The notes beneath the pieces were generated by a model. The model searched no databases and was not told the DNA's origin. It saw only the letters and a list, made by a program, of their open reading frames with translations. 64,000 bases of DNA, from NCBI GenBank assembly GCA_023404495.1, contig JAEYBE010000045.1:6970-70969 (forward strand). The letters are read 5' to 3'. The translations under genes and the position numbers were made by a program. Positions 17,456 to 35,918 of this stretch are shown here, in pieces; positions within the stretch are counted from its first letter, which is position 1; each line of letters starts with the position of its first letter. Source of the DNA: Actinomycetes bacterium. Lineage in GTDB: Bacteria; Actinomycetota; Thermoleophilia; Solirubrobacterales; JACPNS01.

Positions 17456-17550
17456 GCGTGCATAATCGCCGATTCGCCCCGGCAAGCCAATACCGCGGGC
17501 TGGCGAACGGCCGGGGGATAACCCGACAACGCAAGCTCGCGATAGTTGGC

Positions 17551-17592
17551 AACCACATACGTCTTATGGCGCTCCATAGGACGTATGTGGTT
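17551..17592. repeat. REP-like palindromic element, copy 1
   Basis: AACCACATACGTCTTATGGCGCTCCATAGGACGTATGTGGTT is near-identical to the copies at 29160..29208 and 30011..30054. Confidence 0.75.
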
Positions 17593-17624
17593 GGTGAAAA
17601 CGGCATTGGCCCTGGTGTTGGGAA

Positions 17625-29117: not shown

Positions 29118-29159
29118 GCGCTGAATCTACTCGGCGCGCACGGTGGCAAGCGGGTTTTT

Positions 29160-29208
29160 CACCATCACATACGTCCTATGGAGCTCCACAAGACGTATGT
29201 GATTGGTG
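29160..29208. repeat. REP-like palindromic element, copy 2 (upstream of RAYT)
   Basis: CACCATCACATACGTCCTATGGAGCTCCACAAGACGTATGTGATTGGTG shares its core with copies 1 and 3. Confidence 0.75.
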
Positions 29209-29324
29209 GATCTGGCTTATCTACGCGGTGTGGCGAAAAGAATTTCGGATTTGGGGGGTGAATTGGCGGGGGCTTTCTCATTAACCCCTCGCAAGTTCAA
29301 TTCGCGACCGGAGAGGGGTGCCGC

Positions 29325-29999
29325 TTGGCATCTGGGATCCAACTCAAACCGAAGAACGCCGCCAACACGAGTTTCCATGTGACTGCTCGCGGAGTCGGCA
29401 ACTTGCGACCGTTTCGTCGAATCGCCGACAAACACGACTTCCTGGCGCGGTTCGCGTGGTACCTCAGCGAGAAGCGCTACGTGGCCGCTTCCGGCCGACC
29501 CTACGACAAGCTGTTCGATGAGGTCGCCGTGCTCGCGTTCTGCATCCTCGACAACCATTTCCACCTGATCCTCCACCAGTTCACGGACAACGGAATGGAG
29601 CGATTGATGCGAAGAGTTCTCTGCGGGTTCGGGAGATCGTTCAATGCGCGAAGCGATTGGCACGGACCCGTCTTTGATGGCAGATACGCGGCCAATCCGC
29701 TGATCCATCCAGATCACCTGCGTGAATCGATCGCATACACGATCCTCAATGACCCGATCGCCCAGCTGGAGAACGAATTCTGTAGCAACGCGATCATGCT
29801 CGGCGATCAGACTTCATCCTGGTTGCGCCGAGACCTTGCGCTGGGCGTATTCGATGGCGTGAAGGGCTATTGCGACTACATGAATCGAACCGGACCACGC
29901 CGAGTCTCTTCGAAGCTGCGCAGCTGGAACATCGATCCGACGCTCCATCCGTACCGCCCGATCTCTTCCCCTCGTGTCCCGACCCACTCACGCTTCTAA
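29325..29999 (+). CDS. REP-associated tyrosine transposase (RAYT, IS200/IS605-like Y1 HUH family)
   Basis: HUH motif LDNHFHLILHQ, and Tyr motif ESIAYTILNDP (compare Y-I-x-x-N-P). TTG start at 29325 preceded by GGAGAGGGG. Confidence 0.75.
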   Translation: MASGIQLKPKNAANTSFHVTARGVGNLRPFRRIADKHDFLARFAWYLSEKRYVAASGRPYDKLFDEVAVLAFCILDNHFHLILHQFTDNGMERLMRRVLCGFGRSFNARSDWHGPVFDGRYAANPLIHPDHLRESIAYTILNDPIAQLENEFCSNAIMLGDQTSSWLRRDLALGVFDGVKGYCDYMNRTGPRRVSSKLRSWNIDPTLHPYRPISSPRVPTHSRF

Positions 30000-30010
30000 G
30001 CGGAATCTCC

Positions 30011-30054
30011 CAACCACATACGTCCTATGGCGTTCCATAGGACGTATGTGGTTG
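30011..30054. repeat. REP-like palindromic element, copy 3 (12 bp after RAYT stop)
   Basis: CAACCACATACGTCCTATGGCGTTCCATAGGACGTATGTGGTTG. Confidence 0.75.
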
Positions 30055-30113
30055 CTAAGGATCACTTGCGACTGTTTCGGCGACGCCCGTAGGTGCGCGG
30101 GGTTCGTCGCGAC

Positions 30114-35730: not shown

Positions 35731-35879
35731 GGTGATGTTCTCCTGGGGTATTGCTTGCTGACCGCCTGCCGGCGGTCGAAATCTGACGTTGTAAACACAA
35801 TACCCCTAATGCCGATCAGATTTGTCGGTGTTTTGTGAAGAATGCCGCTGTGGCTTGTTTATGCGGTTTTTACTCCATG

Positions 35880-35901
35880 AGGCGACCCCTCGGGGTCGCC
35901 T
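35880..35901 (-). terminator. GC-rich hairpin after crotonase stop
   Basis: AGGCGACCCC-TC-GGGGTCGCCT lies 18 nt downstream of the minus-strand stop at 35919. There is no clear U-tract. Confidence 0.3.
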
Positions 35902-35918
35902 GATGGAAGATTTCCCGC

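Follow-up and report, generated by a model that had tools for sequence, protein, structure and literature searches.

A probable REPtron-like HUH/Y1 unit, one of about ten enzyme–hairpin pairs in the genome of an uncultured member of the Solirubrobacterales

The stretch of DNA considered here (the window) is 64,000 nucleotides (nt) long and corresponds to C26:6970–70969, that is, to part of contig C26 in the assembly of the source genome, G000, which belongs to an uncultured member of the Solirubrobacterales/Thermoleophilaceae (Actinomycetota). The assembly amounts to 2.48 Mb in 64 contigs, is 93% complete and has a G+C content of 64.7%, in agreement with a preliminary description that had taken the window, from its sequence alone, for part of a GC-rich actinobacterial genome. 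Between the start of a gene for a 372-amino-acid (aa) flavoprotein and the stop codon of a glutamate decarboxylase gene lies the unit that is our subject (29148–30069; coordinates refer to the window unless a contig is named). It consists of a gene for a 224-aa protein of the HUH/Y1 type (29325–29999, plus strand; TnpA_Y1 class 2-like) that resembles RAYTs, the tyrosine transposases associated with repetitive extragenic palindromic (REP) sequences, and of one hairpin element on each side of this gene. The TTG start codon is backed both by homologs beginning with MASGIQLKPK and by a Shine-Dalgarno-like run (GGAGAGGGG) 7 nt upstream, and no open reading frame (ORF) of the size of tnpB adjoins the gene. 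Based on the evidence that follows, we consider it likely that this is a REPtron-like unit, in which a single-copy gene for an HUH/Y1 single-stranded DNA (ssDNA) endonuclease of the TnpA_REP-like class is bracketed by hairpins that the enzyme recognizes.

The palindrome of this hairpin family has the form CACATACGTCCTATGG-N4-reverse complement and occurs in the window at 29166–29201, at 30015–30050 (a perfect copy) and at 17554–17589, and half-sites are matched six times where 0.1 matches are expected from shuffled sequences. The left element (29148–29218) is composed of an AAGC tetranucleotide (29148–29151), a 14-nt spacer, a 36-nt core (29166–29201) with two arm mismatches, the loop AGCT and a DNA fold energy of −12 to −14 kcal/mol, a further spacer and GCTT (29215–29218). 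The right element (29998–30069) begins with an AAGC that overlaps the TAA stop codon of the gene (29998–30001), contains a perfect 44-nt palindrome (30011–30054) with a 20-bp stem, the loop CGTT and a DNA fold energy of −23.1 kcal/mol, and ends in the degenerate outer tag ACTTGC (30064–30069). Measured from the 36-nt cores, the gaps between hairpins and gene are 123 and 15 nt; measured from the 44-nt extents, they are 119 and 11 nt, within a few nt of the 117 and 12 bp first reported for the two bracketing copies. The third copy, previously placed at about 17551, is a solo intergenic hairpin element of the same family (17533–17593), in which AAGC (17533–17536) precedes a 44-nt palindrome (17550–17593).

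The HUH motif NHFHLIL and the tyrosine motif AYTILNDP that had been read from the ORF supply H78, H80, Y138 and N142, all of which are invariant in an alignment of 16 homologs and paralogs, as is F30. In an hhalign comparison with Escherichia coli RayT (L124:1638–2135), H78/H80 align with H59/H61, Y138 with Y115 and N142 with N119, so the catalytic tyrosine is in place. An AlphaFold2 model of the 224-aa protein (predicted local distance difference test score, pLDDT, of 89.8) has as its top structural match in the PDB chain 4ER8_A, the E. coli RAYT in complex with a REP hairpin (E of 1.3e-4 and probability of 1.0 over 172 columns; TM scores of 0.42/0.55; 12% identity in the structural alignment), followed by the ISDra2, IS608 and IS200 transposases with about 123 columns. 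The Y---NP signature of class 2 enzymes takes the form Y138-T-I-L-N142-D-P here, with the asparagine in place and the proline displaced by one residue, and is found as YVHRNP in the C10 paralog and as YIHENP in the distant homolog P0024. The NP(L/V)(R/K)xG motif is not present after the tyrosine, where the protein reads NDPIAQ against NPVKHG in E. coli RayT. A C-terminal tail of about 75 aa is conserved (FGGVxGY...NRTGP...PYRPI) and contains no Pfam domain, neither a helix–turn–helix (HTH) nor Bac_DnaA_C; P0024 has a match to HTH_23, which is weak only. The close homologs (n = 23, 44–70% identity) are all encoded by metagenome-assembled genomes of uncultured Solirubrobacterales/Thermoleophilaceae, and some of them were named RayT by JGI; remoter relatives (at most 34% identity) are found in Patescibacteria, Clostridia, Flavobacteriia and other groups. 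Pairwise ratios of nonsynonymous to synonymous divergence (dN/dS) among the orthologs are 0.14–0.24, which indicates that the protein is under purifying selection.

Besides the three copies of the palindrome in the window, a search of the whole assembly recovered two on C47 and one on C11, six in all. The family therefore extends beyond the three loci from which it was first described as dispersed, a word that hardly suits six copies in a 93%-complete assembly, half of them in the window. All six are intergenic, lie 16–70 bp from ORF ends and are found mostly just past the 3′ ends of genes, and among them stems are kept while loops vary. Three copies (29166–29201, C11:10385 and C47:138440) have one arm reading CCTATGG and the other reading CTTGTG(G/A), a combination that gives G·T wobbles on one strand and A·C mismatches on the other; this may mean that the hairpin folds on one particular strand, and three copies are too few to name the functional strand. 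In the outer 4 bp of the stem, no convincing compensatory changes are seen. Two further candidate identities of the hairpins were dropped, namely a known RNA family (Rfam gave only sub-threshold miRNA-hairpin noise) and an intrinsic terminator (a scan found none, and there is no T-run).

The unit is not the only one of its kind in the genome. A tblastn search of G000 identified about ten paralogs with at most 46% identity to the 224-aa protein, all with the HUH and tyrosine motifs. Six of these paralogs have a palindrome of their own family within 270 bp, one different dispersed family per paralog, and 11 elements lie within 600 bp of a paralog where about one is expected from the genome fraction; several of the remaining paralogs are located at contig ends. 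The other hairpin families of G000 have 3–37 elements each, with 37 in the ACTGCGCACC family (frequently paired about 210 bp apart), 8–10 in the TCCATGAGGCGACCCC family, 12 in each of the CAACCTTTGGCACC and ACCTCTGGCC families and 25 in the CAAAGMTGCAKCTTTG group. The window itself contains a hairpin of another family (35874–35907), a 34-nt palindrome (TCCATGAGGCGACCCCTCGGGGTCGCCTGATGGA) with ATGC...GCT flanks that belongs to the TCCATGAGGCGACCCC/TCCATGAGG family, the one cognate to the C47 paralog. The unit is thus one of about ten paralogous enzyme–hairpin pairs in G000, each with its own hairpin sequence. The ACTGCGCACC pairs at C47:44486/44694, 89468/89698, 147787/147998 and 164537/164744 have the sequence ACAAGCC on the outer side only, and these paired hairpins look like REPINs (REP doublets forming hairpins) or miniature inverted-repeat transposable elements (MITEs).

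The protein family is present in all 14 other genomes of the genus, with 1–13 matches each, and a further 87 genomes of the order yielded only three matches, all weak. The expansion to about ten pairs is so far peculiar to this genus of Solirubrobacterales with small genomes. Orthologs of the 224-aa protein in five species (53–66% identity) are also bracketed by two palindromes, and the palindrome varies with the protein, being ACACATACGTCCTGCC in G041, CTACATACGTCCTGCCGA in G011, GACGTACGACGTGCC in G061, GCATGCCCTGTCCATG in G026 and G051, and AAGTACGTCCTGCCGA in G056. Each variant has about 7–10 copies in its own genome, as counted with an 11-mer pattern search of which only exact, paired matches were used (a one-mismatch version was no better than the control). 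Given the fold match, the catalytic residues, the co-variation across species and the one-to-one pairing of paralogs with hairpin families, we regard the cognate relation between enzyme and hairpin as well supported. A second conserved feature of these loci is a motif pair upstream of the gene, which occupies the interval between the left hairpin and the start codon (29253–29290, plus strand; GGGGGGTGAA ... CATTAACCCC) and reads GGGGGGTAAAC ... about 20 nt ... CCCTTAAC across seven orthologous loci (the window, L006, L008, L009, L010, L011 and L023). This pair may be a promoter, an operator or an RNA element.

The sister species G056 has its own hairpin type (TACGTCYTGCCGA; TGCCAAGARRTACGTCYTGCCGAAWTCGGCARGACGTA...), which flanks the gene at the same slot. 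Six copies of this type are found in G000 (C11:15846, C17:39176, C29:11114, C47:95944, C47:141423 and C55:10895), which has no matching enzyme gene, and three of the six are at sites orthologous to G056 copies. Because G000 has both hairpin types and three sites are orthologous, we propose that both types predate the split between G000 and G056 and that a single enzyme allele was retained in each species. Common to the two types is the core TACGTC(C/T)T, and cross-recognition between them may be possible. In one G056 locus, L009 (G056:C52), a run of N at 1218–1316 is flanked by a duplicated half of the gene, which looks like a scaffolding artifact and not a true tandem copy.

An alignment of the hairpin copies on both strands reveals that the element exceeds the palindrome and consists of AAGC, about 13 nt, the hairpin, about 13 nt and GCTT. 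In at least six families the AAGC tag, often in the form ACAAGC(C/G), keeps a constant distance from the hairpin foot that is characteristic of the family: −17 in the family of the unit (−17/−18), −13 in the TCCATGAGG family (17 of 27 half-sites), −25 in the ACTGCGCACC family, and −18, −16 and −13 in three further families. The chance of AAGC at any given offset is about 0.4%. In six of the seven orthologous units the tag follows the stop codon by at most 12 nt, and in G000 and G056 it overlaps the TAA. At its left end, IS608 is cleaved at some distance from the hairpin, on the 5′ side, and because of this similar geometry we posit that the tag is a putative cleavage or target site, with the stem providing specificity. 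Modeled by analogy on IS608 TnpA and E. coli TnpA_REP, the enzyme would bind the hairpin, with its 16–20 bp, in single-stranded DNA such as the lagging-strand template, would hold a metal ion with H78/H80, and would cut and rejoin the DNA near the hairpin with Y138, probably at or beside the AAGC tag 13–25 nt 5′ of the foot. The predicted outcome is that solo hairpin elements are seeded in, or removed from, intergenic DNA.

Comparison of species supports turnover of the unit. The junction between the flavoprotein and glutamate decarboxylase genes is occupied by the unit in G000, G056 and G041 and is empty (35–50 bp) in G046, G061 and G036, and the orthologous gene is located elsewhere in G046, G011 and G061. 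These occupied and empty junctions, together with the other loci in further species, lead us to conclude that the unit has, within the lifetime of the genus, either moved or been lost. The suggestion that the transposase is domesticated is therefore unproven, as the unit is present at the junction in three species, gone from it in three and elsewhere in others. The flanking genes of G000 and G056 agree at about 90% of nucleotides, and identity drops to 55–70% exactly between the two hairpins; the synonymous divergence (dS) is 1.48 for the HUH gene and 0.45 for its neighbor, and the tree of the clade is star-like, with the two slot alleles not sisters. The drop in identity between the hairpins, the high dS and the non-sister slot alleles are consistent with a fixed slot at which a divergent allele has replaced the cassette. 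The G+C content at third codon positions is 0.73 in the HUH gene against 0.83–0.85 in both neighbors, and weaker codon bias may explain part of the excess dS.

This turnover is also what an ordinary insertion sequence of the IS200/IS605 type, or a relic of one, would produce, with the bracketing hairpins as its ends and the solo hairpins as leftovers or MITE-like derivatives. Such an element would have the same superfamily fold, would be present or absent at a fixed junction among congeners and would leave orthologs at other loci in other species, and the distance of the tag from the hairpin foot resembles the geometry at the left end of IS608. We nevertheless regard this explanation as unlikely: each type is single-copy and the paralogs are at most 46% identical, whereas the mean for class 1.1 elements is 4.8 copies that are 99% identical (PMC6006769, Table 1), and the tyrosine motif Y---N(D)P is the signature of class 2 and not the Y---Q of class 1 (PMC6006769). 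Also contrary to an insertion sequence of this type, the protein has 224 aa instead of about 150, does not match the NF033573 (IS200) model and is encoded without an adjoining tnpB, and both ends are the same palindrome, not distinct left and right ends.

The solo hairpins differ between species as well. Two copies, C26:24523 (window 17554) and C47:42883, are present at the orthologous sites of G056, and a third, C11:10385, is missing from its orthologous site in G056 and likewise in G041. Where G000 has C47:138440, G056 (G056:C32, L120) has a hairpin of another family (CCATACCTCCGCCCGA), and the outer flank AAACCGCTTGGGAATGCGG is common to both; the hairpin core may have been swapped, or the site may have been targeted more than once. 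These comparisons bear on the proposal that the palindromes are host operators, mRNA-stabilizing hairpins or bidirectional terminators and that the role of the HUH protein is unrelated to them. Retention of two copies at orthologous G056 sites would be expected of such host sites, as would the intergenic location of all copies, mostly just past the 3′ ends of genes, and a perfect dyad symmetry is typical of operators. We hold this proposal to be highly improbable, however, given that at least six paralogs are paired one-to-one with six different palindrome families, that the palindrome co-varies with the protein across species, that insertions are polymorphic and one hairpin type is replaced by another at the same site, and that the loops vary while the stems are kept.

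Several observations weigh against the REPtron-like interpretation, some of which concern the protein. A Pfam scan of the 224-aa protein gave no match to PF01797 (Y1_Tnp) at E < 1. Homology is secure all the same, through the fold, the aligned residues and relatives that reach this profile: six of 17 aligned homologs match it, and the homolog P0023 (25.6 bits) and the C47 paralog (28.1 bits) pass its cut-off of 23 bits. Among NCBIfam models only that for REP-associated tyrosine transposases (NF047646) matches, with 20.9 bits where the cut-off is 80, and sequence-only searches of the PDB (phmmer and profile) returned nothing significant (E of at least 0.4). Others concern the hairpins. There is no GT[AG]G head at the hairpin foot, which reads C(A/C)A(C/T)-CACATACG. 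Six copies are very few for a REP family, and the total remains low with the six further copies of a related palindrome family in G000; repeat counts from a 64-contig assembly may be too low. Finally, the C11 insertion, at about 130 nt, is larger than the tag-to-tag element, and the empty junctions are too diverged to fix the ends of the mobile segment. The segment that moves, like the binding of the hairpin and the cleavage site, is accordingly described here in conditional terms. Of the REP-RAYT-REP unit originally proposed, the architecture and the cognate pairing stand, and the identification as a canonical RAYT does not (a subthreshold NF047646 score, no Pfam match and no GT[AG]G). Our verdict is that the unit functions like a RAYT/REP system yet is not a canonical RAYT, and that by its motifs it comes closest to subclass 2.1, or TIRYT.

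The low copy numbers bring in another explanation, in which the protein is an active hairpin-specific nuclease with a different selected role, such as the processing of ssDNA at replication forks or the restriction of foreign DNA, and the solo hairpins are by-products or decoys. Purifying selection on the protein agrees with this explanation, very low hairpin copy numbers are a poor fit to an efficient mobilizer, and, as argued by Quentin et al. (PMC6006769), the roles of the class 2 subclasses may be diverse. It nonetheless seems very unlikely to us, as the gene neighborhood shows nothing like a defense or repair operon and the presence or absence of hairpins between sister species is element turnover.

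If the REPtron-like interpretation is extended to all of the hairpin families, the GTAG and CGTC superfamilies of REP-like elements would be joined by a third, "tagged" one in this genus. In this superfamily, unrelated stems would all have AAGC 13–25 nt from the foot, one subclass-2.1-like HUH/Y1 paralog would serve each family, the tag would serve all of them as the place of cleavage or targeting and the stem would set specificity, hairpin cores would be exchangeable at a fixed tagged scaffold (compare C47:138440 with its G056 counterpart), and whole enzyme–hairpin cassettes would be swapped at a fixed chromosomal slot. We advance this joint reading, with all of its parts, only tentatively and would sooner expect some part of it to fail. 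If true, it would place REP-like elements in a subclass thought to be REP-less and class 2 enzymes in a phylum thought to be without them.

Among known systems, the REPtron of E. coli, composed of TnpA_REP (RayT, b0228; 4ER8) and its REP/BIME sequences, represents subclass 2.2 (Quentin et al. 2018), or group 2 (Bertels et al. 2017), and is the reference for our comparison (Nunvar 2010, PMC2817692; Ton-Hoang 2012, PMC3333891; Messing 2012, PMC3479197). The unit is like the REPtron in having the HUH/Y1 fold with aligned HUH and tyrosine residues, a gene bracketed by cognate hairpins, one gene copy per type, co-evolution of enzyme and hairpin, and a gene that outpaces its neighbors, as rayt genes evolve much faster than the genes next to them (Nunvar 2010, PMC2817692). 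Unlike the REPtron enzyme, which has 165 aa, the protein has 224 aa and a different C-terminal tail, and it lacks a motif of the NPVKHG type. The hairpins, long palindromes that are nearly perfect, have neither a GT[AG]G head nor a bulge and are present in six copies and not hundreds, the conserved tag lies 13–25 nt from the foot where that of the REPtron is at the foot, and the host is an actinobacterium.

The motifs of the protein bring it closest to subclass 2.1 (PMC6006769), which is the same as group 1 of Bertels and probably corresponds to the TIRYT/TIRtron (Di Nocera et al. 2013, PMC3733652); this placement is based on a comparison of motifs with Table 1 of PMC6006769 only. The NH[YF]H of this subclass is NHFH here, and its FQ/W[EQ] is FD here and FQ in P0003, P0005 and P0007. 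Its Y[IV]HLNP/YIELNP is approached by YTILNDP here and by YIHLN and YVHRNP in the paralogs, and its SS tail by CS here (SS in P0002 and P0007), with a length of about 238 aa against 224. Low copy number and an identity of about 49% between copies are further features of TIRYTs that the unit resembles. Because self-complementary repeats, in families of moderate abundance, flank some TIRYT genes (PMC3733652), the principle of a hairpin-flanked gene has a precedent. Unlike TIRYTs, the protein lacks a C-terminal HTH (Bac_DnaA_C, HTH_23 or HTH_28), and the gene has AAGC-tagged hairpins instead of GGGGWSAS terminal inverted repeats, the G-rich GGGGGGTGAA being found upstream only and off consensus. 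No REP-like structures were found for subclass 2.1 (Quentin et al. 2018, PMC6006769), and in the broadest survey Actinobacteridae carried only subclass 1.1, of the IS200 type (PMC6006769).

With that subclass, as represented by IS608 and ISDra2, the protein shares its catalytic fold, and those enzymes recognize ssDNA hairpins and cut away from the foot, a geometry that the tag suggests here; their Y---Q motif, dimer of about 150-aa subunits, multicopy identical elements, distinct ends and frequent tnpB are not seen in our unit. To our knowledge, nearly all descriptions of REP/RAYT systems concern Proteobacteria, Cyanobacteria and Bacteroidetes, and a literature search of limited reach found nothing linking RAYT or REPIN to Actinobacteria, Actinomycetota, Thermoleophilia, Solirubrobacterales or Streptomyces. 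What the genus adds is a set of about ten orthogonal enzyme–hairpin pairs in a 2.5-Mb actinobacterial genome, in which recent gain, loss and replacement are visible between sister species. This set offers a natural experiment in the co-evolution of specificity between HUH nucleases and DNA hairpins as well as a test of whether a remote tag, and not a GTAG foot, can guide cleavage, and it may be a source of mutually orthogonal HUH proteins for the covalent coupling of proteins to ssDNA. Set beside the REPtron, the TIRtron and the IS200-type elements, the unit belongs to a familiar class of system, has an unusual form and comes from a host group for which such systems had not been reported.

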